From Fibrobacteria bacterium (GTDB lineage Bacteria > Fibrobacterota > Fibrobacteria > UBA11236): a DNA stretch of 64,000 nt. The notes beneath the pieces are model-generated. The model had not been told where the DNA came from. It did no database searches and saw only the letters and a list, made by a program, of their open reading frames with translations. The DNA is taken from positions 32,001-96,000 of the forward strand of contig JAYTHY010000112.1 in NCBI GenBank assembly GCA_043732185.1, given 5' to 3'. Made by a program: the position numbers and the translations under genes. Positions within the stretch are counted from its first letter, which is position 1; each line of letters opens with the position of its first letter. Shown piece after piece: positions 28,471 through 44,799 of this stretch.

Positions 28471-30243
28471 ATGCAGTCAAGACCATTTCATTTCATTTAC
28501 ATGTGGTTAGGTCTCATCTTGCAGTTGACGGTGACAGCCACGTATTCAGACAAGTTTTCTTTTTCTCATTCCATTCACCCCGGTTTCGACAATTATGACA
28601 TTTTGCCGCCCACTTGGGTTGTGGATAAAGATGGGGTAAATCCGATTGGTGCCATTGCCCTGTTGCCGGATGGCCGAATGGTCACGACTACCTGGACAAG
28701 TAAAACGGGTTCAAATGGTAGAAACGGGCAAGCATTTATTTTATCCGGAGTTTTAACTGCAACAACACGGGCTGGAATAACGGTGACCACTCTCCCAACT
28801 TCCTTGCGCGAACCACTAGGGATGACCATTGTCAATGGATCAATCTATGTCGTCGAAAAAGATCGACTGGGAAAGTTCACGCCCAATGGGGCGAACTGGA
28901 CCTACTCAGTTGAATATGACAAAGCCAATGCAGTCGCGTTTCAAAATTACGGGCACTGGTTTTCCATGGGACTTATTTATTATCAAGGTAAATTCAATTG
29001 GACTTTAGGGGGATTCCATGATTATGGAAACTATATCGACTCGAACCCAGAAAGACACGGGACCTGGGTACAGTATGATCCCACCACCAAGACGCATGAA
29101 TTCATGGTCTACGGCATGCGCAATACGGGCGGAACATCACTCGGGCCAGATGGAACTATTTGCACTACCGACAATCAAGGTGACTGGGAACCCTCCGATA
29201 AATTTATTTGTATGGAAAAAGGAAATTGGTACGGGTTTGATGGACCAACGGCTCCCATGCGGAGAACGGGACAACCTGAAAGTCCTCCCACAGTCTGGGG
29301 GCCACATGATGAAATTACCAATTCAATGGGTGATGCTATCCTGATGCCTAAGGGCAAATATGCGGGTCAAATGTTTATTACCGATTTGACGAATGGCGTT
29401 ATCAATCGAATCTTCTTAGAAAAGGTCCGAGGCCATTGGCAGGGCGCATTCACCTTTGTGACCGCAGGTTTTAAGGCCGGACCTTATCGAATCATTTTGG
29501 CCCCGGATAGTACTACGCTTATCGTGGGATGTACCGGTGGTGGTGGTGGTGGTTGGAAATATTTAGATACTGCGCAAGCCTATTCAGGTCTGCACAAATT
29601 GGTGCCCAACAATAAGCCGGTATTGGAAATTCTTGCCGTGCGTTCCATGAGCAATACCAAAATGGAGGTGCAGTTTACTGAGCCGGTTAATCCGGCCGCC
29701 GCCCTTGCGGCCGGTTACACTGTAACCAGTTGGAAAAACATACCCGGTCCAGGATATGGGCAAGGGAGAAACTCGCTTCCCTTGACGCATGCCATTACCA
29801 ACGTGACTCTTTCAGCTGATAATCTAAAGGCAACTTTAACACTCACAGGTTTGGAAATGGGGCGCATCGTTCGAATCTTTGTGAATCCAACGGTTAAAGC
29901 GCTCAACGGGGATACCCTTTGGTTCAAATATTCTGATTACACCCTGACAAACTATGGTCCCGCGGAAGTTGTTTCCTTGAAGCGCATGCTTAGTGGTAAT
30001 GAAGTGAAGCCATTCCAGTACGCGTTGCACAAAATTCGCAATGGAGTGGAATTGAAAATGTCGACTTCGGGTGCTTTTGTAGTTGAAGCGTGGACAATGC
30101 AGGGCACCCAAATAACAAGCATAAGCAAAGCGGGTCCATTTGGCTTAACGCTGACTCGAGAAGCCGTGGGAACAGGTGTGTTTATGCTACGCATCAAGAA
30201 TGAAGCAGGCCTGGCACTTTCCGAAAAAGTATCGATGCTTTAA
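28471..30243 (+). CDS. Secreted beta-propeller protein, tandem copy 2
   Basis: Colinear with copy 1 over the full length (590 aa each). Confidence 0.75.
   Translation: MQSRPFHFIYMWLGLILQLTVTATYSDKFSFSHSIHPGFDNYDILPPTWVVDKDGVNPIGAIALLPDGRMVTTTWTSKTGSNGRNGQAFILSGVLTATTRAGITVTTLPTSLREPLGMTIVNGSIYVVEKDRLGKFTPNGANWTYSVEYDKANAVAFQNYGHWFSMGLIYYQGKFNWTLGGFHDYGNYIDSNPERHGTWVQYDPTTKTHEFMVYGMRNTGGTSLGPDGTICTTDNQGDWEPSDKFICMEKGNWYGFDGPTAPMRRTGQPESPPTVWGPHDEITNSMGDAILMPKGKYAGQMFITDLTNGVINRIFLEKVRGHWQGAFTFVTAGFKAGPYRIILAPDSTTLIVGCTGGGGGGWKYLDTAQAYSGLHKLVPNNKPVLEILAVRSMSNTKMEVQFTEPVNPAAALAAGYTVTSWKNIPGPGYGQGRNSLPLTHAITNVTLSADNLKATLTLTGLEMGRIVRIFVNPTVKALNGDTLWFKYSDYTLTNYGPAEVVSLKRMLSGNEVKPFQYALHKIRNGVELKMSTSGAFVVEAWTMQGTQITSISKAGPFGLTLTREAVGTGVFMLRIKNEAGLALSEKVSML
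29536..29553 (+). repeat. (GGT)6 trinucleotide repeat encoding Gly6
   Basis: GGTGGTGGTGGTGGTGGT within a variable loop of copy 2. Confidence 0.8.
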
Positions 30244-30278: not shown

Positions 30279-32096
30279 GTGAGATTAAAACCGATTTATT
30301 CAACTTGTTTGTGGCTGGGATTGGGCTTGCAGCTTATGGTATCTGAACCGCTGGCACAAACAAATCCACCAGCATTTCCCTTTGCCCATCTGATTCATCC
30401 CGGCTTTGACAATTACGATATCTTGCCTTCCCCTTGGGTGGTCGACCAGTTCAACAAAAACTCGATTGGCGGAATTGCGCTGCTTCCCGATGGCCGCATG
30501 GCCACGACTATTTTTAAGGAATACGGCAATGCCACCAATAGAAATGGCCAGATATTTTTGTTATCCGGAGTATTGACGGCTACAAAACCTAGCGATATCA
30601 CCATGAATCAAATCACGGCTTCTTTGCGCGAACCGTTGGGTGTGACGGTGGTGAACGGAAGCATTTATGTCACCGAAAAGGACCGAATTGGGAAACTGGC
30701 ACCAACTGGAGCGGGCTGGACCTATTCCGTAGAATATGATAAGGCCAACCCAGTGGGTATTCGCGATTATGGACACTGGTTTTCCATGGGTCTGGTTTAT
30801 TATCAAGGTAAATTCAATTGGACCTTGGGTGGATTTCATGCTTACGAACCCGCGGATACCGTCTATACAGCGGCAACGGGTGTCGGCGATCCTGAACCGT
30901 TAAAGCATGGAACCTGGGTCCAGTATGATCCTGTCACCAAAACCCATGAATTCATGGTTCACGGACTCCGGAATACCGGCGGCACATCCCTTGGTCCAGA
31001 TGGAACTATTTGTACTACCGACAATCAAGGCGACTGGGAGCCTTCGGATAAGTTCATTTGCATGGAAAAGGGTCAATGGTATGGCTTTGATGGGCCAAAG
31101 TCACTTGCAAAGCTTCCTGGCCAAGTTGAATACCCGCCTACGGCCTGGGCCGCCCACGATGAAATCAGCAACTCATTGGGGGAATCTGTACTGATCCCAA
31201 AAGGTAAATATGCCGGGCAAATGTTTGTTACGGATATAACCAATGGCATTATTGATCGAGTTTTTCTGGAAAAAGTCAAAGGCCATTGGCAAGGTGCATT
31301 CACTTTTGTTACTGGTGGATTTCGGGCTGGTGCATATAGAATTCTTGTCGCGCCTGATAGCGCAACTCTAATTGTGGCTGGCCTGGGTGGCAGTGCCAGC
31401 AGCGGTGGATGGACATACCTTAAACAGCCCTTATATTCCTGCCTCCACAAATTGGTGCCAAATAAAAAAACGGTTTTGGAAATACTTGCGGTCCGTTCCA
31501 TGGGTCCAACGAAAATGGAAGTGGAATTCACCGAACCGGTTAACCCGGCCGCCGCCCTGGCTACGGGATATAAGATTACCAGTTGGAAGAACATTGCAGG
31601 TCCAGGTTATGGGGAGGGGAATCACTCCCTTCAATTGACACATACGATCACGAATGTCGCTCTTTCACCGGATAATTTAAAGGCCACTTTAACCCTATCG
31701 GGACTGGAAGTGGGCCGCGTAGTTCGTGTTCTAGTGAATCCCGCGGTCAAGGCACTGAGTGGGGACACACTTTTCTTCAAATTCTCTGATTATACGATGA
31801 ATAATTTTGGTCCTGCAGAGCCCGTTTCCTTGGCGCGGATGGTGGGTGGCCAGGAGGTTAAGGCGTTCCAATATTCATTGCAGAAAAATAGCACTGAGGT
31901 GGAATTGAAAATGACAACTTCCGGTGTGTATTCAATTGAAGCCTGGACCATGCAGGGTACTAGGGTGGAAAACATCCGCAAAGAAGGACCCTTTAGTCTG
32001 ACCCTATCCAAGGAAACCTTGGGAACAGGCGTACTGATGCTACGAATCAAGAATGAGGCGGGCCATTCTGTATCGGAAATTATTTCAATGTTGTAA
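30279..32096 (+). CDS. Secreted beta-propeller protein, tandem copy 3
   Basis: GTG start; colinear with copies 1 and 2, with loop insertions. Confidence 0.75.
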   Translation: MRLKPIYSTCLWLGLGLQLMVSEPLAQTNPPAFPFAHLIHPGFDNYDILPSPWVVDQFNKNSIGGIALLPDGRMATTIFKEYGNATNRNGQIFLLSGVLTATKPSDITMNQITASLREPLGVTVVNGSIYVTEKDRIGKLAPTGAGWTYSVEYDKANPVGIRDYGHWFSMGLVYYQGKFNWTLGGFHAYEPADTVYTAATGVGDPEPLKHGTWVQYDPVTKTHEFMVHGLRNTGGTSLGPDGTICTTDNQGDWEPSDKFICMEKGQWYGFDGPKSLAKLPGQVEYPPTAWAAHDEISNSLGESVLIPKGKYAGQMFVTDITNGIIDRVFLEKVKGHWQGAFTFVTGGFRAGAYRILVAPDSATLIVAGLGGSASSGGWTYLKQPLYSCLHKLVPNKKTVLEILAVRSMGPTKMEVEFTEPVNPAAALATGYKITSWKNIAGPGYGEGNHSLQLTHTITNVALSPDNLKATLTLSGLEVGRVVRVLVNPAVKALSGDTLFFKFSDYTMNNFGPAEPVSLARMVGGQEVKAFQYSLQKNSTEVELKMTTSGVYSIEAWTMQGTRVENIRKEGPFSLTLSKETLGTGVLMLRIKNEAGHSVSEIISML

Positions 32097-32986: not shown

Positions 32987-33895
32987 TTGCCAATTGGGCA
33001 AAAAATTAATGGGGAGGGTGGTATCGTCACTTTGCGACAGTTCGCGGCCAATGAGGTGATCATTCATGAGAATGAGCCTGGTGAGTTTGCCTACATCATC
33101 GAAAAAGGCTTGGTGGAAATAACCAAAATTTTAGAGGGAAAGCAGGTGCATATCGCCAGGTTGGAAAAAGGTGCAGCCTTTGGTGAAATGAGCCTGATTG
33201 ACGAAATGCCGCGTAGCGCAACGGTTACGGCTCGAGAAGAAACCTTGGTGCGTGAAATCCACCGCGACGATCTTTATAACACCATGAAGGACCATCCAGA
33301 AGCCGTCATGGTAATCTTGAAAAGGATTTTTGAACGCCTGCGTGAATCGAACATGCAATTGGTGCAAGCCCGACTCCAGACACAAAAAAATCAGCAGCCT
33401 ATGAATGATCCCAGTTTTACAAGTGCAGGATCAGGAGCGGAAACGGAAGCGGGACTAGCATCTGGATCAAGAATTTCCGGAGATGTCATAAATGTTCCGG
33501 ATGTGGCCACAATGCAGACTGTTTGTTTATTGGAAGGCATAACTATCGAGGCTGCCGATGCCATGCCGCAAAACCCATTAAGTTTTGGGATTTTCCCCTT
33601 TAAGATTGGACGAAAGAGTCGAGATCCTATCGTCAGCAATCATTTGGAAATCGAAGATCGGGCGCCGCTGCAGGTTTCCCGGCACCATGTCAGTATCGTA
33701 AAAGTCGGGGACAAAATTGGCGTGGTGGATCGTGGCAGCCAATTGGGCGCCTCAGTGGATGGCGTTCGAATTGGCGGGAACGCCAGCCCTGGCCCAGTAT
33801 TTTTTCAAGGCAGGGAAGGGCTGTTGGTCCTTGGCCCCGAAACGTCTCCTTACCGATTCAAAATCAGCCTGAACGGGTCTCCAGGCCAATCTTAA
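32987..33895 (+). CDS. Cyclic nucleotide-binding domain + FHA domain protein
   Basis: AYIIEKGLVEI, FGEMSLIDEMPRSATV (cNMP); FKIGR, VSRHH, DRGSQLG (FHA); true start probably slightly downstream. Confidence 0.85.
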   Translation: MPIGQKINGEGGIVTLRQFAANEVIIHENEPGEFAYIIEKGLVEITKILEGKQVHIARLEKGAAFGEMSLIDEMPRSATVTAREETLVREIHRDDLYNTMKDHPEAVMVILKRIFERLRESNMQLVQARLQTQKNQQPMNDPSFTSAGSGAETEAGLASGSRISGDVINVPDVATMQTVCLLEGITIEAADAMPQNPLSFGIFPFKIGRKSRDPIVSNHLEIEDRAPLQVSRHHVSIVKVGDKIGVVDRGSQLGASVDGVRIGGNASPGPVFFQGREGLLVLGPETSPYRFKISLNGSPGQS

Positions 33896-33901
33896 TCTGA
33901 A

Positions 33902-35086
33902 CTACCAGACTACTGCTACGGTTAAACCAAAAGCCAAGCCGCTGGACACGTAATACATTACGGGAATATCGAGTTTAACGGGACCTACGCCTATACCGAG
34001 TCCGCTCATGACGCGCAGTCGGGCAAAGGACGGTCCATTATTGCTGCTGCCATCTATTTTGACATCGGCGGGATTGAATTTTGCCTTAGTTGTATCGGTC
34101 TTGATAGTGGCCTTGGCCAAGCCTTCCAATACGATTTTATTTGATCCGAAATTCATGTCAAAGCCCACGCCGGCCGTTACATTTATCAAACCCCAAAGAA
34201 CGCTGACGGCAGTTACCGCATCAACAGGTATGGTATAGGTGGATACTTCCTGGCCCATGTTAAAGCTAGGGATAAGATTTATGCCTGGGTCGTTGGTAAA
34301 ACCCAGTTGGTCTAGAAAAACTTTTCGGGCGGTAGAATCTGAACTGGAGGTTGCGGCCCCAAGCAAGTCCTTTCCAAATGGAATCGCATTTTGAATGGTA
34401 TCGGCTTTAATTAAGAAATTGATTTTCTCGCTTTGCATGTACAGGCCAGATCCGATGGAAATACCACGCCACTTGATCAAGCCCACCAGGCTCTTTGTAT
34501 CCAGCAAACGGTAATTGAGGCCCATGCCCATGACTTTGAAATCCAATCCAAACCCATTACGATTTATTTTTGCTCCGCCGTATTTTGCATTAGCGTAAAG
34601 GCCCGGCATGAGAAACCCAGCATTGATGCCGACATTTAGGTAGGTAATGCCGATGCCGAGACCTGCATACACATCTCCCTTCCGAGTGATTTCATCACCA
34701 ATTTTACTGTAGTAACTTAAACTGGTGCTGGGCGCCTGTACGCCCACCATAAGTCCCGTAGCCACTGCAAAGAGTGAATAATTTTGAAACCCTTGTAAGG
34801 TAGCCGAATTCATAGAATAAGCGTTGGCATTGGCAAATCCTTGGGCGAGATCTTTTTGCTGTTTGTATTTCGACAGGTTTTTTCTGGCAGTGTCAAGTGT
34901 GCTGGTAAAGGACTTGGCCAAAGTGATGTTCAGGTTATTCCTAAATTGGGCTAATTGAGGGTTCGCATTTGCGGCATCATTCACAATGACCAGCACAGGG
35001 GGATTTCCGGTAATATCGAGACTTTTTCCAATAGAAAAAAGGCCAAGCAATGCAGTTAAAAAAAGACCATAAAATCTAGTTTCCAT
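33902..35086 (-). CDS. Putative outer-membrane/surface protein, uncharacterised
   Basis: Signal peptide from ATG 35086; Gly-rich amphipathic strands; C-terminal LAFGLTVAVVW. Confidence 0.6.
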   Translation of the reverse strand: METRFYGLFLTALLGLFSIGKSLDITGNPPVLVIVNDAANANPQLAQFRNNLNITLAKSFTSTLDTARKNLSKYKQQKDLAQGFANANAYSMNSATLQGFQNYSLFAVATGLMVGVQAPSTSLSYYSKIGDEITRKGDVYAGLGIGITYLNVGINAGFLMPGLYANAKYGGAKINRNGFGLDFKVMGMGLNYRLLDTKSLVGLIKWRGISIGSGLYMQSEKINFLIKADTIQNAIPFGKDLLGAATSSSDSTARKVFLDQLGFTNDPGINLIPSFNMGQEVSTYTIPVDAVTAVSVLWGLINVTAGVGFDMNFGSNKIVLEGLAKATIKTDTTKAKFNPADVKIDGSSNNGPSFARLRVMSGLGIGVGPVKLDIPVMYYVSSGLAFGLTVAVVW

Positions 35087-35206
35087 GGATTGTCCTATTG
35101 TGAAAAGTGAAGAAAAGCAGTCCCATAAAATGCAGATAAGGTACAGCCCCCGCATTTTTCTGATTATAGCACCACATTACTGCCAATTTCCAATATGGAA
35201 ATTGGA

Positions 35207-36385
35207 TTACTGAGCAGGCAAGTCCACTATTTGCCAGCCCTTTGCGCCAAATCTCAAGTCCCGTTCCACAAACGTCCACACCACTAATTTCTTTTGCATT
35301 AGCAGATCACCCCGACGTGACAATAGTTGACGCACGACCGTGGATGCTCCGCCATCATTGACCAACGAGGTCAAGGGGCGATTGAGTCGGTACGCCAGGT
35401 GTGCAATGATACCGGAACTGGTGGGCTCATCGGTTTGGTAGATGCGAGAGAAGCTGTCTCCCAGCCACAAGATCGGGGAAAGTGTGTCGTCTTGATACGG
35501 CAGACTGGTCTGGAGGTCGAGAACTTTTCGAATAGACATATTTTCTTTTTCCCAAATGCTTTTGCGATTGGGAACTTTAGTCATCTCCGCAATATCGCCC
35601 CATCTTTCCACCGAAGTGTTTTTCAACGCATAGCGAGGATGCCAAGATCTATTGGGGTAAAGCCCAAACCCCAATTTTCGAATTTTTGTCGCAATGATTT
35701 CTGCGGCCACTTCCATTCCATGGGGAGACCAATGGGTATCGCGCATCAAGTACAGTGGCGGTCCACCTTGGGTTTTGGCTACAAGCATGGGTGTAAAAAG
35801 ATCCACGGTTTGGACGTTGTGATTTTTCAAATCTTCCAGTAGAACTAGGCTAGGGGAAACGGGTTGTCCGGAAAAACCTTTCCAGAGTTTTTCTGGATAG
35901 ATGCTTGGCTTGCCTGGAATGGGAATAATGAGCAACTCAATGCCACGCGCTTTTAATCGGTTCCGGAAATCCAAGATCGCATAAAGTGGGTTGCGTAAAT
36001 TAATCCGTTTGCCATTTAGCAATGAGTCGAAAGTGCCTTTATAAAACCGTGCATCGGTATAAGGGGGTTGGAGCAGATAGTCCGCATCCTGATTGTAGAA
36101 AAGCCAGCCGTCTTCGCCCGGTAGGGACTTGGGGGCCATCTCACCAAAAAATTGAAATCTCAATTGCAGAGTTCGAGGTCGGAGCCATTTGGAAAAGAGG
36201 CTGCGGTCCTTGGCGTTATCATCCCAGCGGTGTAAGCTGGCCTTGGTGGGAAGGGTTTTTAATAGTTCGAATAGATACGGGCTTTCTTTTTCAACCGCAA
36301 CCTCATAGCAAACTTGGAACAGTGGAATGCCGGCGCAAACTAAAAGTAAGCTTGCAACTATTGTCCACTCCAGTTTACGCAGCAT
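35207..36385 (-). CDS. AlgX/AlgJ-like SGNH O-acetyltransferase
   Basis: GEDGWLFY, IPGKPSIYPE, DTHWS, LGDSF (permuted SGNH order). Confidence 0.85.
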   Translation of the reverse strand: MLRKLEWTIVASLLLVCAGIPLFQVCYEVAVEKESPYLFELLKTLPTKASLHRWDDNAKDRSLFSKWLRPRTLQLRFQFFGEMAPKSLPGEDGWLFYNQDADYLLQPPYTDARFYKGTFDSLLNGKRINLRNPLYAILDFRNRLKARGIELLIIPIPGKPSIYPEKLWKGFSGQPVSPSLVLLEDLKNHNVQTVDLFTPMLVAKTQGGPPLYLMRDTHWSPHGMEVAAEIIATKIRKLGFGLYPNRSWHPRYALKNTSVERWGDIAEMTKVPNRKSIWEKENMSIRKVLDLQTSLPYQDDTLSPILWLGDSFSRIYQTDEPTSSGIIAHLAYRLNRPLTSLVNDGGASTVVRQLLSRRGDLLMQKKLVVWTFVERDLRFGAKGWQIVDLPAQ

Positions 36386-36388
36386 GAT

Positions 36389-37822
36389 TCAGAATTGGAA
36401 ATACAAAAAGGGGTTGAAACTTTGCGTATACATCATTACTACGGCGAATAAAAACAGGCCGAAAGCTAATGCCGATTTCCCCCAGGTTAGGCGCGCGCCA
36501 AATTCATAACTCTGTACAGGTTGGTATATGGCAATCGCGCAAAGGGCCATGTTCAATAGATTGTTAAAGTGATACACCTCGGCATGCAAAAGACCCGCGA
36601 AGGGGCTAGCCGTTTTCCAGCCGAACATACAGCCCAAGTACTGGAAGGCATGGGGGAGGCCATCGGCGCGGAAAAAAACCCAGGTGATGAGCACAACCAA
36701 AAAAGTGAATGCCACGCGAACTGAATGTGGCATCTTGGCATAAATTGGTTTTTTACCACCCCAGCGTTCTAGGCCAAGCATCAGTCCATGGATAGCCCCC
36801 CAAAAGATAAACTGCCATTGTGCGCCATGCCAAAACCCACCCAAGAGCATGACCAAGGCTAGGTTGATATAAGTGCGACGCTCACCCTTGCGGTTGCCGC
36901 CTAAGGGAACATATAGGTAGTCGCGCAACCAGGTGGACAGGGAAATATGCCAGCGCCGCCAGAAATCCGTAATGCTGTCTGCATGGTAAGGTGCATTGAA
37001 ATTTCGAATAAGTTCGAACCCAAATAGCATGCCTAGGCCTAAGGCCATCAGGGAATATCCATTGAAGTCGAAATAGATTTGAAAGGCATAGGCGAGTACG
37101 CCCCACCACGCTTCGAGGGGGTGCGGGCTCTGAGCGGCGAATACGGCATCGGCTATTTTTCCTACAGGGTTGGCCAACAGAATTTTCATTGAGAAGCCGA
37201 TGAAAAACAGGATGGCTCCGCGCGCGAAAAGCTGCACGCTATGGGTACGCGAATGCAGTTGAACCGCGAGAACTTTGTAGCGCAGGATGGGCCCGGCTAC
37301 CAATTGCGGGAAAAGGGAGACGAAGGCGGAAAAATCCGCGAAGGAGCGCACAGGTTTTTCGCCTCGATAGACATCGATCACATAACTCATGCTGTGGAAG
37401 GTATAGAAGGAGATGCCGATGGGGAAAGCGATTTGTAAAACGCTGAAGGTGGGTTGTCCGACGGCTTCGAGCAAGTGGTTGAGATTGATCTGGGTGAATA
37501 CGCCATACTTGAACAGGCCGAGCAAACCAAGGTTTGAAATCATGGAAATAGTAACAGCCAGCTGGCGATGCCGCACATGCAGGTTGGGGCGGCCCAAGTA
37601 AAGTCCGCAGCCATAGTCGAAAACATTGGTGAAAAGCATCGGGAAGACAAACCAAGGTTCAAACCACGCGTAAAATGCATAGCCCATAAAGGTCAGCCAA
37701 AGATTGCGCATCCAGAAACGGGATTTTCCCAAAGCTGGATTTTTTTGGAATGGAATCAGGTAATAAATGGCCAGGGTTAGCGGTAGGAAATAGAAAAGGA
37801 AAATGTCTTCCGTGAAAACCAT
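36389..37822 (-). CDS. MBOAT family O-acyltransferase (AlgI/PatA-like)
   Basis: PIGISFYTF, FPQLVAGPI, QIYFDF.GYS, FWRRWHISLS.WLRDYLY, GFWHGA. Confidence 0.93.
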   Translation of the reverse strand: MVFTEDIFLFYFLPLTLAIYYLIPFQKNPALGKSRFWMRNLWLTFMGYAFYAWFEPWFVFPMLFTNVFDYGCGLYLGRPNLHVRHRQLAVTISMISNLGLLGLFKYGVFTQINLNHLLEAVGQPTFSVLQIAFPIGISFYTFHSMSYVIDVYRGEKPVRSFADFSAFVSLFPQLVAGPILRYKVLAVQLHSRTHSVQLFARGAILFFIGFSMKILLANPVGKIADAVFAAQSPHPLEAWWGVLAYAFQIYFDFNGYSLMALGLGMLFGFELIRNFNAPYHADSITDFWRRWHISLSTWLRDYLYVPLGGNRKGERRTYINLALVMLLGGFWHGAQWQFIFWGAIHGLMLGLERWGGKKPIYAKMPHSVRVAFTFLVVLITWVFFRADGLPHAFQYLGCMFGWKTASPFAGLLHAEVYHFNNLLNMALCAIAIYQPVQSYEFGARLTWGKSALAFGLFLFAVVMMYTQSFNPFLYFQF

Positions 37823-37841: not shown

Positions 37842-38921
37842 CTATTCGAACCAAATGTCCGGCCACCGATCATTACCCGTATGGTAAGTGAGGCGCGCCG
37901 ATTTTTCAAATGGATCGCCAATCTTCCAGAGTTGCACTTCATAATCGGCGAGATCGTGATCATGGCCTCTTTGCGTCGCACACCAGATGAGAAAGTCCCC
38001 TTTTGGCGAAAGCCTGGGAAAATATTCATGCGATCTACGGCCGGGAAGATCCATGAACACGATATTCTTGCCGTCTATTTTTCCACCATCAATTTTGCCA
38101 TGCGTTCCGTCCTCATTGAGGTCGAAGGCGAAGATGGATGTGCCACCGAGGCCGGTTTCGTTAACACGGATACACCGGTGGGAATTCGGGAAAAAGCTGA
38201 ACTGGCAGCCTCCTCCTGAGGTAAAATAATGGTGGGTCGAAAGATTTAAAATGCCCGTCTCTCGTGAACTCCCCCGCAATGTTAGAGCTAAAAATCGACC
38301 GTCATCGGATAGGGAAGGGTGCTGGGCCAATCCGCCTTTCCAATCTTTGTCTCCGTCCGCGAGCAAGACTTCGCCACTTCCGTCTGGATTGCATTTGAAT
38401 ACCTTGGGGCCGCGTGAAAATACAATGGCTTTGCCATCCCGAGTCCAGCATGCCCACGTTGAGTTTGGAATAAGCAGGTGCTCCTCGCTGCCATCCGTAT
38501 GGATGACAAACGTGTCCCAGCGCTCTGGGTAGTTGGCGTCCGTTTCAATGGTCCAATCCAACTTTGAACGTGTGAACAAAACCAATTTTCCATCTGGTGA
38601 AAATCGGGAATACCAATCGGTTTTAGGGCCTTTAGTAAGAGGATGGGAATCGGTTCCATCGATATTCATAATATAAATATCGTGATTGGCATCACGGGAA
38701 GTAGACCAAATGATTTTGCCCTTGAGGTTTTGAGTCAATGCCTTTTGGGCGGCTTGCTCTTCCGGTTCAGGTGTTACGGGTCGGCCCCTGGGCGGCTCGG
38801 CTGCGATCATTTGGACAAATCCGGAAAACAGGAGAAAGAGCAACAGGAATGGGCATGAATGGAAGGCACGGATAATGGCGGGTATTTTAAGGACGCACTT
38901 ATTAGAGCTGAAATTCAACAT
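37842..38921 (-). CDS. TolB-like (PD40 repeat) beta-propeller protein
   Basis: DIYIMNIDG, RFSPDGK, PRLSPKG, RLTYHTGNDRWPD. Confidence 0.8.
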   Translation of the reverse strand: MLNFSSNKCVLKIPAIIRAFHSCPFLLLFLLFSGFVQMIAAEPPRGRPVTPEPEEQAAQKALTQNLKGKIIWSTSRDANHDIYIMNIDGTDSHPLTKGPKTDWYSRFSPDGKLVLFTRSKLDWTIETDANYPERWDTFVIHTDGSEEHLLIPNSTWACWTRDGKAIVFSRGPKVFKCNPDGSGEVLLADGDKDWKGGLAQHPSLSDDGRFLALTLRGSSRETGILNLSTHHYFTSGGGCQFSFFPNSHRCIRVNETGLGGTSIFAFDLNEDGTHGKIDGGKIDGKNIVFMDLPGRRSHEYFPRLSPKGDFLIWCATQRGHDHDLADYEVQLWKIGDPFEKSARLTYHTGNDRWPDIWFE

Positions 38922-39014
38922 GTCATCTCCTACCCGAGGCTATTTTAAAAGTATAGAATTTGATCGAGATGGAAAGGATTTAGGTTAAGATCTCTTTCTA
39001 TTTTAGGGAGTCGA

Positions 39015-40223
39015 ATGCAGTTTTTCCTACGTCAAATGTTGTCTCTCCCCTGTATATTCTGTGTCATTGCCTGTAATAATCCAGGATCCGGTCCCGTTTA
39101 CTTTCCTCCGAATCCTTGCGAAAATCCATCTGAATTGGCGCTGCCACCAATTGCCGTAACAACGCATACACATCCAATAAGGGTGAGCGGCAGCTTCATT
39201 ACCTTGTCAGGCATGCACTGGGCTCCAGTCGATTCAGTGCGGGCTTTTTTCGGAGGCAAAGCTGTCAAGCTTGTGTTTACATTGAACCGGCAATTGTATT
39301 TAGTGGATTACACAGGTACTGAAGCCACAGTGACGCGTATTTCGCATGACGATGAAAGCTTAACAGGGGCATTGGGGTCTATCAATAGCCCACTGTTTTC
39401 CCCTGATGGAAAAAAGATTGTATACGCTGGAACTACCCGTGGCCAACCTGCTTTCATTTTGGATGCTGTGCCAGGTGGACAGGAGGCCTGGCGCGTTCCT
39501 CTCGACCCCAAAGCCCATGTGACGGCCGATCCACATTGGCATAGTGAAGGGGGTAAGACCTGGATTTATTTTGCCACGCTGGCCGGCTTGGTCAATTATT
39601 CAAGTTCCTGTGGGCAGATAAACGGCAGTACCTACAGAGTGGAAGTTCTGGGTGATACGCTACTTGGTCCCATTGATACTTCCGGCATCCCGGGTGCTTA
39701 TCGTGGTGGGCTGTCTTTGGATGGGGAATGGGCTGGTACCTCATATGCTACCTCGGCTTTGTATAACCGTATGGAAAGAAATACGCGAACCCTGGCGAAT
39801 GGTGAACAACAATGCAATCCATCCATGAATCCCTTTCCCATAGGCAGTTTCCATTCGGATTATATGATGATTTTGGCTTTCGGCGGTGTGTACTATAGAA
39901 CCATAACCGGAGACAGTATAACAGAAGGATTACATGAGAATCTATGGATATATAACCGCAATGACTTGATAGTATGGCAGGCCAAACGGACCGACGAAAC
40001 ATATTACCTGCGATGGGATAAACCGGAATGGTCTACCCATCCGCAATATGCAACGGCAGTGGCGCTTCAAAGGGTTAGCGGCGACGGCGACCTGTTTGTG
40101 ATCAGAATCGGGGATTTGGCCAATGCCACGGAAGGTGCCCTCAACCAAGCACAAGGCTATTTAAAAATCGGATCCGGCGGATTTACCAGTGATTCCTACT
40201 CGCACCTCTGGGTGGCCCCTTAA
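39015..40223 (+). CDS. Lipoprotein with TolB-like propeller, resembling part of Fibrobacter TIGR02171-type proteins
   Basis: Lipobox VIAC, SPLFSPDGKK, AYRGGLS, NGEQQCN, WDKPEWS. Confidence 0.6.
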   Translation: MQFFLRQMLSLPCIFCVIACNNPGSGPVYFPPNPCENPSELALPPIAVTTHTHPIRVSGSFITLSGMHWAPVDSVRAFFGGKAVKLVFTLNRQLYLVDYTGTEATVTRISHDDESLTGALGSINSPLFSPDGKKIVYAGTTRGQPAFILDAVPGGQEAWRVPLDPKAHVTADPHWHSEGGKTWIYFATLAGLVNYSSSCGQINGSTYRVEVLGDTLLGPIDTSGIPGAYRGGLSLDGEWAGTSYATSALYNRMERNTRTLANGEQQCNPSMNPFPIGSFHSDYMMILAFGGVYYRTITGDSITEGLHENLWIYNRNDLIVWQAKRTDETYYLRWDKPEWSTHPQYATAVALQRVSGDGDLFVIRIGDLANATEGALNQAQGYLKIGSGGFTSDSYSHLWVAP

Positions 40224-40258
40224 AGGGCAGGCCCATGCACTCAAAGGAAGATTGAAGC

Positions 40259-41488
40259 ATGCAGTTACCTTCAAAAAAAAATCAGGCTCTCGACCGTTCC
40301 AAAAGCCATGCGCTAAAAGCACTGTTCGCATTGGGGGCTGCGGTATTGATGGGGGTTATTTGGGTTAGGACGCCACGCAATTATGGAGAAGAGGTGGCTG
40401 TTTGGAACAATATTGGCGGGTGCGGAAGCAGTGGGGGAGGGGCCGCGGCAGGTGCCGGCAAATGGGTGGGACGCGGCGTGAGCGGAGGATTGGTGGACCT
40501 GGAAATCCTGTCCAATAAAACACTTGGCGGAGATTATCTCTATTCTTCCGTCGCGGGATCCACTACGCTCCATTTCCCTGCCTATCCCGTGTGGACACTG
40601 GGCATTTCCACATCATGGAAATCCAATACGTTTGAATACGAAGGCTATAAAGTTGCAGCAGACCTTACCTCTAGGATGGAAAGAACCACCGGTGGATTCG
40701 GCGATTTGGGATTTTCAGTAAACCGGATTTTTGGTAATGAGAATGAGCACTCGCTGGGACTTTCCGCTTCCTTGCCGACAGGTCAGCATAATATTAAGCG
40801 ACTGCATTTCAAAGGCCAGAATATTGAAGCCGATGACGTCCGTTGGATGAACCCTTTTGTGCAACCAGGCACGGGTTTTTACAACTTGGGACTAAGTTAT
40901 GAATACACAAAAACTAAGGATTGGGGATTGCTGGTTTTTGGTGGAAGTTACAGTTCTGCTTTTGTTTGGGAGAATCAAGGTTGCCGCGACGGTTTGCCAA
41001 GCACGACCTCGGTTAATGATCGGGTACTAAGTTGTCAAGCTGCTAGTCCTTCACCCTTAACGTTTAAAATCTGGCAATTGCGGCATCAACCCTACTTTTT
41101 TGAGAACCCCAATCCGAATTGGGCCAATAGTTATGGGGCTCCCGGTACTGGCGCTACGAGCGCGGATGGTCTGGGTTTCTTTGCCTATATTGGACGCAAG
41201 GAAGAAAGTTCCACTCAAAATATGGGGCTCACTCTATCGGTACCTCTGGCTCCCACCTATTACTGGGAATACGGACCCGGCACAGACAACAGTCGCATGA
41301 GTACCCGCATTCGAACCAATGATTTCACTTTGAAAATCAGTACAGGTTTGGAAATCACCAACCCGAATTTCCCCATTTTTCTGTCCTTGGGTGTTCCTTA
41401 TCGACTCAACGATATTTTCGCCCGGGGACGTTTGGTGGATCCTCAAAATTATATCGGCACGGTTGGCATTCGTGGAACGTTTTTTTAA
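40259..41488 (+). CDS. Putative outer-membrane beta-barrel (GxGD...PTG transporter-like)
   Basis: GGFGDL, SLPTG, QPGTG, terminal strand VGIRGTFF. Confidence 0.55.
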   Translation: MQLPSKKNQALDRSKSHALKALFALGAAVLMGVIWVRTPRNYGEEVAVWNNIGGCGSSGGGAAAGAGKWVGRGVSGGLVDLEILSNKTLGGDYLYSSVAGSTTLHFPAYPVWTLGISTSWKSNTFEYEGYKVAADLTSRMERTTGGFGDLGFSVNRIFGNENEHSLGLSASLPTGQHNIKRLHFKGQNIEADDVRWMNPFVQPGTGFYNLGLSYEYTKTKDWGLLVFGGSYSSAFVWENQGCRDGLPSTTSVNDRVLSCQAASPSPLTFKIWQLRHQPYFFENPNPNWANSYGAPGTGATSADGLGFFAYIGRKEESSTQNMGLTLSVPLAPTYYWEYGPGTDNSRMSTRIRTNDFTLKISTGLEITNPNFPIFLSLGVPYRLNDIFARGRLVDPQNYIGTVGIRGTFF

Positions 41489-41530
41489 GTGCTGCAAAAG
41501 AGAAAAACACATGAGGAAGGATAGAACAGC

Positions 41531-42607
41531 ATGCCGCGTATAGCACTCATTGGCTGCGGTGGATTTATTGGCAGTCATTTTCTGGATGCTTTTCTAAGCG
41601 ACCCCGTTTGGTCCATTGAAGGTTGGGACTGGGAGTGTGGAAAAATCATTCCCCATTTGGACAATCCCGCTTTCACTTTCTACCCTGGGGATGTCTATGC
41701 CTTTCCGGACCTGGAAGATCACCTGGCGAATTGCGACGTCGTCATTAACCTAGCGGCGCTTTGCAACCCTTCCCAATACAATATTCGCGGCATAGATGTG
41801 ATTGAGAGCAATTTCATACACCCCCGGCGCATAGCTGATATATGCGCGCGTAGGGGGAAATGGCTGATTCAGTTTTCTACTAGTGAAGTGTATGGGCAAA
41901 CTTTGGCTCACTGGACCGGAGCTGAAAATCCTGAGCCATCGAGCTATGAATTAGATGAACAAGTTTCGCCGATGTTACTGGGTCCCGTCTCCGGATTGCG
42001 CTGGAGTTATGCTTGCGCCAAGCAGTTATTGGAACGTTATATTTTAGCGTTGCACCAGGAACAAGGGTTGCTCTATACGCTTATCCGGCCTTTTAATTTT
42101 CTGGGGCGGCGCATGGATTTTTTACCTGGTCTCGAGGGTGAGGGGCTGCCTCGGGTATTGGCCTGTTTCACGGCTGCGTTGTTGGAAAAAAGACCCTTAA
42201 GCCTGGTCGATGGCGGCAAAGCCAAAAGGACATTTTTGGCCGTGGAAGAAGCCGTTGCAGCCTTGCGATTGATGTTGGAAAGACCAAGTAAGGCCCATAA
42301 CCAAATTTTCAATCTTGGGCATCCCGGTAATGAAACCACTATCCTTGGATTGGCGGAAAGGATGCGGGAGCTCATGGCGGAATTGACTGAGGATATGAGC
42401 TATCTGCATCATCCATTGGTTTCAGTTTCGGCACATGATTTTTACGGCGCTGGGTATGAGGATTCCGATCGGCGTATGCCACGGGTCGACCGGGCCCGTT
42501 TGCAACTGGGTTGGGAACCGAAAAAAAACTTAAATGAAATCCTTCGCCCTATTTTACGAGACGCTATTGCCACTCACTTGAGTTTGTCCGTCCATAACGC
42601 CCAGTAA
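41531..42607 (+). CDS. NAD-dependent epimerase/dehydratase, UDP-apiose/UDP-xylose synthase-like
   Basis: GCGGFIG, NLAALC, FSTSEVYG, RWSYACAKQL, RMDFLPG..GEG.PRVLACF, FYG.GY.DSD.R. Confidence 0.85.
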   Translation: MPRIALIGCGGFIGSHFLDAFLSDPVWSIEGWDWECGKIIPHLDNPAFTFYPGDVYAFPDLEDHLANCDVVINLAALCNPSQYNIRGIDVIESNFIHPRRIADICARRGKWLIQFSTSEVYGQTLAHWTGAENPEPSSYELDEQVSPMLLGPVSGLRWSYACAKQLLERYILALHQEQGLLYTLIRPFNFLGRRMDFLPGLEGEGLPRVLACFTAALLEKRPLSLVDGGKAKRTFLAVEEAVAALRLMLERPSKAHNQIFNLGHPGNETTILGLAERMRELMAELTEDMSYLHHPLVSVSAHDFYGAGYEDSDRRMPRVDRARLQLGWEPKKNLNEILRPILRDAIATHLSLSVHNAQ

Positions 42608-43020
42608 CGCGTGCGTTTGTCCTTGAAAAAATCGTCTTCGATGGCGCCGGTCCATTTGCTTTCCATGGGGGATAGCACAAGGTTATGAACGTCCCCAACC
42701 TGGAAGGATTTTAAATTTCCGCCGACTAAGCTGTCCAATCCATCTTTGATTTCGGCTCGGGCAAAGCGTGGGTTGTAATGGCCGATCAAAATCTCCGTAT
42801 CCGCATAATTGCCAGCCAGTACTTTCAGCACCTTGTATTTCATAACATAGGCATAGTTGTACAAATCGTTGGCGGGGAAAAGACCGGGAATGTCCACTAA
42901 CTCTGCTTTCACGATTAAGTCGCCATGGATCGGTGGCGTTTTTGGCGCAGGACTTTCCGATTGGTTGCCTTTGCAAGCAAACAGGCAAAATAAAAGAAAA
43001 AAAATTATACGCGTTTTCAA
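42574..43020 (-). CDS. Hypothetical lipoprotein
   Basis: Lipobox LFAC; compact beta-rich domain; 34-nt convergent overlap with the SDR gene. Confidence 0.7.
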   Translation of the reverse strand: MKTRIIFFLLFCLFACKGNQSESPAPKTPPIHGDLIVKAELVDIPGLFPANDLYNYAYVMKYKVLKVLAGNYADTEILIGHYNPRFARAEIKDGLDSLVGGNLKSFQVGDVHNLVLSPMESKWTGAIEDDFFKDKRTRYWALWTDKLK

Positions 43021-43044
43021 AGTAAAAGTATTCTGTGAATCAGA

Positions 43045-44799
43045 TCATCTACCCACGTTTATGAATTTCCGTACAAGAGATCGGTTAGCATTTTGGAATT
43101 GAACATAAAATATTCCGGGCTTCAACCCAGATAGGGGGATGGCTGTATTCAATTGACCGTGGACTGCAGAGGTATATTCGATTCTCCCCTTGAGATCCAC
43201 AATTTGCAGCGTACCGGTTTCAGAATGGTGGAAATCGATTTGCAAAACGTTGTTCTTACAGTTTAAAGTAAGTGATTCTAAATCGGGCTTTATGCCTTGG
43301 ACGGGAGTGGGAAACATTTCGGTTTCCTTGCTGATTTTGTTCAGGGTATACCAAAACTCACCCGTAAATGCAGGAGTGCCTTTTTGGGATACCAAATTCC
43401 GATGAAAGCGAATGCGCACAACCCTGCCTGCTTCCAATCCGTCAATTTGCAAATGAACCTGGGTATTTGTGGCGTTGGCGGTCGCACGAGATACCTTCAG
43501 ACTTTTGCTGTCTATGACCGGTCCACCATAGGCACTGGTGGGTTTATAATACCACGTTTCAACCTGATAATTGTCGACCGAAAGTGCGGAGGGTCCAAAG
43601 GGTTCTGTAAATACCAGGGTAAATCCATTGGCTTTGGAATGCACTTCCAACACTTCAAAGGCTGTTTTATTGTTAAAGACAGCGGCCTGCATTCCAAACT
43701 GATGCCCATTCCAAATCCAAGTGCTGTTACCGGTCGCGCCCAGTCCACCCAGGTACAGTATTCCAGACGAATCCTGAAGCAACCGGTGGATGCCCGCCGA
43801 TTGCCCTGCGCTAAAGTGAAACAAGGCTCCTTGCCAATCGCCTTCCACCTTTTCCAAAGCCGCCCTATGAATATTGCCATAAAAAATATCGCCGATTATG
43901 AATTGGCCTTTATAAGGGCCGTGGGATAAAAGCAGCGGCTGAGTGGGCGACATGGCGCTTTCAATATAAGGAAAGTAAATGGCAGGAGGCGTTTCGATTT
44001 GTTTGCCGTCGAGAGTGTATTGCTGTCCATAGAAACTGGCTTTCTTAACGTGGACCAGTTTACTGGCGGGGTTCCAAGTGCCCTGATTAATCGTTGCGAA
44101 CAACTCGCCTTCTGGTCCCCAGCCCAAGCCATCCGGATTTCGTAACCCAGAGGCGATAAATTCTTTGGTTCCGTCCGTGCTGTTAATTTTCGCAATTACA
44201 GATTCCCAAGGTTCACCCGGATATTGAAATCCACCACCTTGTCCAGAAAAACCCGTGCCCACGTAAAAAAAGCCGTCCTTGTACTGAAGATCGTAAGTGT
44301 ACGTATTTGCAGCAGGCCCAACTCCGCCCACATTTTCACTAACAGAAAAGGTGGTCAAAACTTTCGTAGAATCGGCTATGTGATCGCCATTGGTATCGAT
44401 TAATTTGGTAATAGCCCATTTGTGCGCTACGTAGACTTCGCCTTTCACTACTTTAATTCCCAATGGTTCTAAAATGACCCCATTGTAATATTTTCGAAAA
44501 GTCACTTTCGATTTGTCCAAACCTTTCATACCTTCCAATACCCAAATGCTGCCATCAGACCAATCCCAGTGGGCGAAAACAATGCGATTGCTGTCCAGCC
44601 AGTCCCAGGCCGCAATGCGTAGATTAAAATTTGCCGGCATCAGATCCACGAGATCAATACTCGGGTGCACTTTGGTTAAGGTGCCAATGTTATCCGAGGG
44701 CACCCATTGGGCGTTTACCATTGAGGTTGTAAAGGTGAAAAGCATGGCTACCGCAAGCATCCGTGCAAGGCAGTATGGAATTTTATTGGGAACGCGCAT
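43045..44799 (-). CDS. Secreted beta-propeller protein, distant fourth paralog of the 26.6-32.1 kb trio
   Basis: EPLG, SGLRNPDG, NQGTW.P, DWQGA, LVFTEP, WYTLN; tail GIFYVQ. Confidence 0.75.
   Translation of the reverse strand: MRVPNKIPYCLARMLAVAMLFTFTTSMVNAQWVPSDNIGTLTKVHPSIDLVDLMPANFNLRIAAWDWLDSNRIVFAHWDWSDGSIWVLEGMKGLDKSKVTFRKYYNGVILEPLGIKVVKGEVYVAHKWAITKLIDTNGDHIADSTKVLTTFSVSENVGGVGPAANTYTYDLQYKDGFFYVGTGFSGQGGGFQYPGEPWESVIAKINSTDGTKEFIASGLRNPDGLGWGPEGELFATINQGTWNPASKLVHVKKASFYGQQYTLDGKQIETPPAIYFPYIESAMSPTQPLLLSHGPYKGQFIIGDIFYGNIHRAALEKVEGDWQGALFHFSAGQSAGIHRLLQDSSGILYLGGLGATGNSTWIWNGHQFGMQAAVFNNKTAFEVLEVHSKANGFTLVFTEPFGPSALSVDNYQVETWYYKPTSAYGGPVIDSKSLKVSRATANATNTQVHLQIDGLEAGRVVRIRFHRNLVSQKGTPAFTGEFWYTLNKISKETEMFPTPVQGIKPDLESLTLNCKNNVLQIDFHHSETGTLQIVDLKGRIEYTSAVHGQLNTAIPLSGLKPGIFYVQFQNANRSLVRKFINVGR

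Follow-up and report, generated by a model that had tools for sequence, protein, structure and literature searches.

In plants, UDP-apiose/UDP-xylose synthases (UAS) supply the transferases that build pectins and glycosides from nucleotide sugars, and the apiose of plant pectin is crosslinked by borate. Bacterial UAS are already known, namely GrUAS, XpUAS and CeUAS (Smith and Bar-Peled 2017, PMC5607165); the accessible part of that paper counts eight bacterial UAS genes, describes no conserved operon and does not identify the apiosides. According to an extract of PMC6193724, the apiose operon of Xanthomonas pisi is a single GT90/GT2 operon with the order UAS-XpApiT (GT90)-XpXylT. PRPP-based systems are known to transfer lipid-linked pentofuranoses (PMC11127046), and the extract of that paper mentions neither apiose nor Fibrobacter. 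The GT-C transferases of transmembrane glycosylation systems typically carry a D-x-D motif in an outer loop and share low sequence similarity (PMC8035078, in extract). Ten signature residues of Arabidopsis AXS1 are tabulated in the available portion of PMC12820599, where UXS and ArnA have Ala at the position of plant Cys100 and Ser at that of Cys140.

Here we describe a UAS homologue, P0001, encoded in a window of 64,000 nucleotides from an uncultured Fibrobacteria bacterium (contig JAYTHY010000112.1, positions 32,001 to 96,000). The gene belongs to a cassette that is split over two places of the genome, the window, with the UAS and a predicted outer-membrane barrel among other genes, and contig C19, with five further genes encoding a GT2, an SDR, a long SGNH protein, a membrane(-plus-TPR) protein and a transglutaminase-like TPR protein (Table 1). 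Among the matches listed we found no literature on this cassette and none linking apiose to Fibrobacter, in a search that left most subscription journals outside.

Table 1. Features of the window and of the cassette partners. Positions without a prefix are those of the window.
Feature	Position	Strand	Evidence
Three tandem paralogues, predicted secreted, 590-605 aa	26606-28378, 28471-30243, 30279-32096	+	
cNMP-binding/FHA protein	32987-33895	+	
Lsa36-family surface protein, directly following the SGNH gene	33902-35155	-	
AlgJ/AlgX-like SGNH protein	35207..36385	-	PF16822 E 5e-26; D-x-H and G-D-S motifs in translation
AlgI-like MBOAT membrane acyltransferase	36389..37822	-	PF03062 E 2e-29
TolB-like beta-propeller protein	37842..38921	-	TIGR02800 E 4e-12; PF07676
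Predicted lipoprotein, 402 aa, weak PD40 propeller repeat, first gene of same-strand run	39015..40223	+	PF07676 at cut-off; lipobox-like Cys20
Predicted outer-membrane beta-barrel (family F3), 409 aa, directly upstream of UAS	40259..41488	+	FapF profile match
UDP-apiose/UDP-xylose synthase homologue (UAS; P0001), extended SDR, 358 aa, ATG start	41531..42607	+	structure/family matches, residues, trees
Predicted lipoprotein (family F11), 148 aa, convergent, overlaps UAS 3' end by 34 bases	42574..43020	-	lipobox-like Cys16
584-aa protein resembling the tandem paralogues	43045-44799	-	T9SS-type C-terminal domain, weak TIGR02604 match
Multi-pass membrane protein, 552 aa, GT-C-like candidate	C19:5948-7606		D-x-D, topology, Atlas lead
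Partner SDR, NDUFA9-like, not GalE-like	C19:13603-14547		
GT2, 250 aa, soluble, lipid-carrier type	C19:14571-15323		Pfam GT2
Transglutaminase-like (SirB1-like) TPR lipoprotein	L081:2924-3856	-	conserved Cys and His motifs in 5/5 homologues checked

Identity of the UAS homologue

The top PDB match of P0001 was Arabidopsis AXS1 (6H0N; 301 bits, E 9.9e-89), and ArnA chains scored 176-180 bits (E 7e-52). The curated cut-off for ArnA was not reached (201 versus 777 bits), and the best NCBIfam match, PRK11908 (4-keto-pentose/xylose synthase), also stayed below its cut-off (242 versus 294 bits). P0001 is 51% identical to GrUAS of Geminicoccus roseus over 340 aa. Its identity to five UAS of plants or algae is 39-45%, and that to three ArnA-type rows 33-35%. 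P0001 is therefore not specifically "plant-type", as a sequence-only reading of this DNA had labelled it, being nearer to a bacterial enzyme than to the plant and algal ones. The closest named loci, both from records titled Fibrobacteria bacterium, are 97% and 95% identical. P0001 is present in a single copy, the remaining six matches within the genome being SDRs with 26-34% identity.

All motifs listed in the sequence-only reading were found again in the translation: AAxC, STSEVY (with Ser118), RWSYACAKQ, RPFN, RMDFLP, PRVLACF, LVDGG..RTF and FYG.GY.DSD.R.P. The triad Thr117/Tyr160/Lys164, GxxGxxG at G8-G14 and the decarboxylase Glu (E119) place P0001 among the extended SDRs. In a pairwise alignment with 6H0N, read by hand against the residue table in the extract of PMC12820599, nine of the ten AXS1 signature residues are identical (Thr117, Tyr160, Lys164, Tyr83, Glu119, Arg157, Arg315, Asn189 and Cys78). 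The last of these, in the AAxC motif, corresponds to plant Cys100. Cys occupies this position in all 120 closest homologues of P0001 and in 77 of 80 genome loci carrying UAS, with no call for the remaining three and no other residue scored.

The genome encodes a canonical UXS elsewhere, on contig C115 (E 1e-127 to human UXS), and thus P0001 is not needed for xylose. For the supply of UDP-glucuronate there are three genes of the UDP-glucose/GDP-mannose dehydrogenase family. By the mechanism given in the literature on the family, P0001 would use NAD+ to oxidise UDP-glucuronate at C4, ring opening and decarboxylation would follow, and reclosure of the ring would yield mostly UDP-apiose with some UDP-xylose. 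We consider it very probable, from matches, residues and trees, that P0001 is an NAD+-dependent UDP-apiose/UDP-xylose synthase which makes UDP-apiose.

The one signature residue that differs is plant Cys140, which is Ser118 in P0001, and the sequence-only reading had supposed that this exchange may shift the apiose/xylose ratio. We found Ser at this position in 119 of the 120 closest homologues and in 98 of 104 further ones; among the 80 loci, Ser was counted 55 times, Cys 18 times and Ala seven times. Plant rows have Cys in 114 of 119 cases (no call in the other five). In the alignment, GrUAS combines Ser at the Cys140 position with Cys at the Cys100 position, and its sequence was matched to the assayed construct via the primers published in PMC5607165. 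The assayed GrUAS gave an apiose:xylose ratio of about 1.7:1, similar to the plant enzymes (PMC5607165, in extract). Since Ser is the bacterial norm and an enzyme with Ser yields a plant-like ratio, the proposed shift finds no support, and we reject Ser118 as a product switch. Cys at this position is a feature of plants that does not define the UAS family. This removes a false lead, as apiose output does not need Cys140.

Phylogeny and distribution of UAS

The FastTree phylogeny comprised 150 rows: 74 of the 80 loci, P0001, GrUAS, 12 plant or algal sequences, 38 other homologues, 18 ArnA-like sequences and six outgroup sequences. Six loci that were near-identical, broken or partial (L001, L002, L016, L050, L070 and L080) were left out. 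P0001 fell into a 115-row clade with GrUAS and the plants (support 99) and, within it, into a 12-row group of Fibrobacteria-type sequences (support 100). In an IQ-TREE mixture tree of 44 of these rows, five ArnA-type rows were split off by a 100/99 branch, and a constraint grouping P0001 and two close relatives with the ArnA-type rows was rejected (p-AU 0.0006). The phylogeny with AXS, UXS and ArnA that the sequence-only reading had asked for therefore puts P0001 with assayed UAS and plants, apart from ArnA/RsU4kpxs and UXS-like sequences. Its assignment to UAS, and not to ArnA or UXS, is borne out by the AXS1 match, the cut-offs, the tree and the AU test, and an ArnA identity is rejected on the last three. 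Recent transfer from plants to bacteria is not supported, because P0001 nests among Fibrobacteria sequences. The sister of the plant UAS clade differs between the FastTree and IQ-TREE trees, in which the root is unsure and deep branches are weakly fixed.

Several sequences stood apart in these analyses. Between UAS and ArnA lies a group made up of P0245, P0255, P0263, P0268 and L078; its members carry Ala at the Cys100 position, and some of them have Cys where plants have Cys140. P0268 has a start similar to that specified by the Entotheonella primer; an exact match to this published primer was not found in one search of metagenome contigs. The unnamed UAS sequences P0258, P0295 and P0321 perhaps come from other algae, and P0258 is sister to Mesostigma and the land plants (100/97, IQ-TREE). 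The UAS of L062, L064 and L065 (records titled Oscillospiraceae, Senegalimassilia and Sodaliphilus) cluster with that of a Fibrobacter locus (support 100) and have the same neighbours; these records are probably mis-binned or mislabelled contigs. The UAS frame in L016:7964-9079 is broken near the first conserved Cys, and long extensions were seen on the UAS of L044:8001-9878 (625 aa) and P0229 (746 aa). A search of viral contigs for UAS gave one weak match (26%). Four plasmid records (Alloyangia, Salipiger and Paraburkholderia) had a UAS match, and the cassette was absent from the one inspected.

Neighbours of UAS in the window

The barrel encoded directly upstream of UAS matched no Pfam or NCBIfam family; a profile of 23 homologues matched the FapF barrel (E 2e-5), and the protein ends in Phe. 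Its Atlas neighbours are named "Transporter", and PF13557 occurs on 22% of one cluster at a recognition value below the trust line. A homologue lies near UAS in 29 of the 80 loci. At residues 49-59, after a hydrophobic leader, all 23 rows share an invariant W-x-x-x-G-G-C-G, which could be a processing or lipidation site.

Homologues of the 402-aa lipoprotein were found near UAS in nine of the 80 loci. The F11 lipoprotein, which matched no Pfam or NCBIfam family, recurred in 16 and lies within the operon in L030, L031, L038, L042 and L045. Further upstream, the TolB-like protein has a homologue near UAS in 22 loci, Myxococcota included, and the MBOAT protein in 20. The D-x-H and G-D-S motifs of the SGNH protein were kept in six of six homologues checked, and by sequence criteria the MBOAT and SGNH proteins form an O-acylation module of the AlgI/AlgJ/AlgX type. 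A scan for promoters and terminators (38700-43200) was uninformative, with nine sites of each kind against 6.3 and 5.2 expected.

Other genes of the window were noted in passing. Neither the Lsa36-family protein nor the cNMP-binding/FHA protein recurred near UAS in the 80 loci, and two of the three tandem paralogues were scanned and had no Pfam family.

Cassette partners on contig C19

In the PDB, the GT2 best matched dolichol-phosphate mannose synthase (E 1e-9), followed by GtrB and ArnC, and the best NCBIfam matches of an orthologue were polyprenyl-phosphate sugar synthases, below the cut-off. GT2 genes lie near UAS in 46 of the 80 loci; in the studied genome the two are not adjacent. The 552-aa membrane protein has eight hydrophobic segments in a rough scan. 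In an 18-row alignment, D-x-D follows the first helix in all 16 rows that cover it, and TPR repeats occur in up to eight of the 18 members. Outside the TPR part it had no Pfam, NCBIfam or PDB match, and its lead in the Atlas was a Dpy19 cluster (0.91, 165 shared features). From the D-x-D motif, the topology and this one lead we infer a GT-C-like transferase.

The partner SDR is found near UAS in 34 of the 80 loci, in three of them without the rest of the cassette, and the substrate of this co-inherited enzyme could be a sugar to be changed or a lipid. The long SGNH protein weakly matches AlgJ and AlgX structures and is extended at its N terminus by about 350 residues that belong to no known family. 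The transglutaminase-like TPR lipoprotein (near UAS in 23 of the 80 loci) is a possible protein-processing step of the cassette. An EamA gene follows that of the membrane protein and lies near UAS in only six of the 80 loci. No family match to a GtrA-type flippase was obtained in the genome. LpxC is present, and a GT90 apiosyltransferase as partner of UAS is excluded, as the genome has no GT90 gene.

Gene order and co-inheritance

Leaving the SDR aside, one or more cassette genes lie within 8 kb of UAS in 43 of 44 Fibrobacterota-labelled loci, in 14 of 14 Myxococcota loci and in one of 11 Pseudomonadota loci; three Geminicoccus loci have no cassette genes within this distance. Among close relatives, UAS is flanked by the genes for the membrane protein and the long SGNH in L007, L008, L010, L012, L016 and L022, and L009, L013 and L014 have a single run of barrel, UAS and long SGNH. 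In the studied genome, UAS is next to the barrel in the window, and the membrane protein and long SGNH genes are back to back on C19. From these two orders and the split between window and C19 we infer a single system that has been broken up at different places. In the fullest operons (L031, L038, L042 and L045) there are in addition a 240-aa GT2, a 300-aa SDR and the long SGNH; in Myxococcota loci, the additions are a transmembrane protein with TPR and a TPR protein of the transglutaminase-like kind. Records titled Fibrobacter and Sorangium contain the module as well.

We then profiled 296 Fibrobacterota genomes with thresholds of our own choice, which for UAS was E 1e-60 or better. UAS was matched in 186 genomes (116 of the 172 of high quality), nine of these matches being weak (E above 1e-70) and counted without a motif check. 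The membrane protein was matched in 176 genomes, the barrel in 183, the GT2 in 179 and the long SGNH in at least 153, a lower bound because the threshold cuts through the scores of one family. UAS and GT2 occurred together in 176 genomes, with UAS only in 10, GT2 only in three and neither in 107. The corresponding counts were 171, 15, 5 and 105 for the membrane protein, 179, 7, 4 and 106 for the barrel and 148, 38, 5 and 105 for the long SGNH. Moreover, all five genes are jointly lost within genera, in one of 14 genomes of g1 (G257) and in 10 of 12 of g6. In these counts related genomes are not independent and many are incomplete; the tallies include G254 (unpublished), which raises every positive count by one, and none of the claims depends solely on it. 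About 63% of the Fibrobacterota genomes searched thus carry UAS, the marker of a tightly co-inherited module. The remark of the sequence-only reading that few bacterial producers are described holds for the literature searched but not for genomes, as the gene is common across Fibrobacterota.

Proposed pathway and alternatives

We propose that P0001 makes the donor for a conserved envelope system. The GT2 of C19 would move the pentose onto polyprenyl phosphate, a flippase would carry the lipid-linked pentose across the membrane, and the 552-aa protein would hand it on to an acceptor in the periplasm or at the surface. A product may be O-acylated by the MBOAT together with the two SGNH proteins, and the barrel and lipoproteins may scaffold or export it. 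Sequence identity, residues, phylogeny, gene order and co-occurrence are the basis of this reading. In our judgement it is probable that polyprenyl phosphate carries the apiose, that transfer to an envelope acceptor takes place outside the inner membrane and that the product is acylated; we counted the chemical instability of UDP-apiose (PMC5607165, in extract) against this reading. An apiosylated envelope glycoconjugate is the likeliest predicted end product, in agreement with the apiosylated glycan supposed in the sequence-only reading.

The same lipid-carrier route might instead deliver a sugar other than D-apiose, either because cassette-type enzymes yield mainly xylose or the 4-keto intermediate, or because the SDR, ahead of transfer, epimerises or reduces the pentose in its free or lipid-linked form. 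The recurrence of the partner SDR near UAS speaks for this, as does the three-component system of Citrobacter youngae O2, where an SDR epimerase decides the pentofuranose (PMC11127046, in extract). Furthermore, the assayed GrUAS belongs to a different sub-clade from the cassette-type enzymes, for which the literature searched contained no assay. Nevertheless, the conserved Cys at the Cys100 position, the separate UXS and the NDUFA9-like, not GalE-like, nature of the SDR all argue against it, and we regard this alternative as unlikely.

NDUFA9-like SDRs can act on lipids, bacterial ceramide reductase being an example. UDP-apiose could hence be made and used by the GT2 to form an end-product glycolipid in the cytoplasm, the SDR building the lipid, with no periplasmic GT-C step. 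The weak matches of the GT2 to carrier synthases, all below cut-offs, would suit such a glycolipid, as would the genome's want of a GtrA flippase match and a GT-C call made from motif, topology and one Atlas lead. It would, however, leave unexplained the near-perfect co-inheritance of the D-x-D membrane protein, the periplasmic SGNH proteins and the outer-membrane barrel, and we hold it to be improbable. Finally, a role in lipid A modification as an ArnA-like enzyme or 4-keto-pentose synthase, with an incidental likeness to UAS, would agree with PRK11908 as best NCBIfam match, an ArnC-like GT2 and the presence of LpxC, but is very hard to reconcile with scores below both cut-offs, the 100/99 branch and rejected grouping, Cys instead of Ala at the Cys100 position and the lack of aminotransferase or formyltransferase families among the conserved neighbours scanned.

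A wider form of the favoured apiose-carrier pathway is more speculative, and we give it only a low likelihood: that in most Fibrobacterota and many Myxococcota an undescribed envelope machine uses a GT-C with TPR to apiosylate surface proteins or a non-LPS surface polymer, the product then being acylated and either exported or anchored via the FapF-like barrel. If this were true, apiose would be an old and common bacterial surface sugar, bacteria would hold most of the diversity of the UAS family, and surface apiose would possibly be crosslinked by borate, by analogy to plant pectin. In any case, the context of the module names candidate apiosyl-carrier and transfer enzymes, and its cultured hosts are a place to test what bacteria do with apiose.

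Comparison with known systems

P0001 itself is one more member of the known bacterial UAS family. It shares with GrUAS, besides the sequence identity, the same Cys and Ser at the Cys100 and Cys140 positions and the same side of the tree; GrUAS, XpUAS and CeUAS nevertheless belong to a different sub-clade and phylum. In contrast to the eight genes in the accessible part of PMC5607165, here UAS is matched in most of the genomes searched in a single phylum, sharing a cassette that the Geminicoccus loci lack. Arabidopsis AXS1/UAXS (6H0N) is the best solved-structure match and differs in having Cys140 where P0001 has Ser118. As in X. pisi, whose product is a cell-associated apioside (PMC6193724, in extract), UAS is coupled to glycosyltransferases, but the partners here are a short carrier-synthase-like GT2 and a membrane protein in place of GT90.

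With an MBOAT and two SGNH proteins whose motifs are intact, the cassette resembles the AlgI/AlgJ/AlgX system of alginate O-acetylation; it differs in the N-terminal extension of the long SGNH and in having no alginate synthase among its conserved neighbours. A putative carrier-loading enzyme, a multi-pass D-x-D membrane protein and an auxiliary SDR are shared with GtrABC, ArnC/ArnT and CsbB/GtcA/YfhO (PMC8035078) and with the Citrobacter pentofuranose systems (PMC11127046), both as given in extracts. In contrast to these transmembrane glycosylation systems, the cassette has no GtrA match, its donor would be UDP-apiose, and it adds the MBOAT/SGNH module, the barrel, the lipoproteins and the transglutaminase-like TPR protein. 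Hence the cassette appears to be a variant on an established type of envelope glycosylation, equipped with a bacterial UAS.
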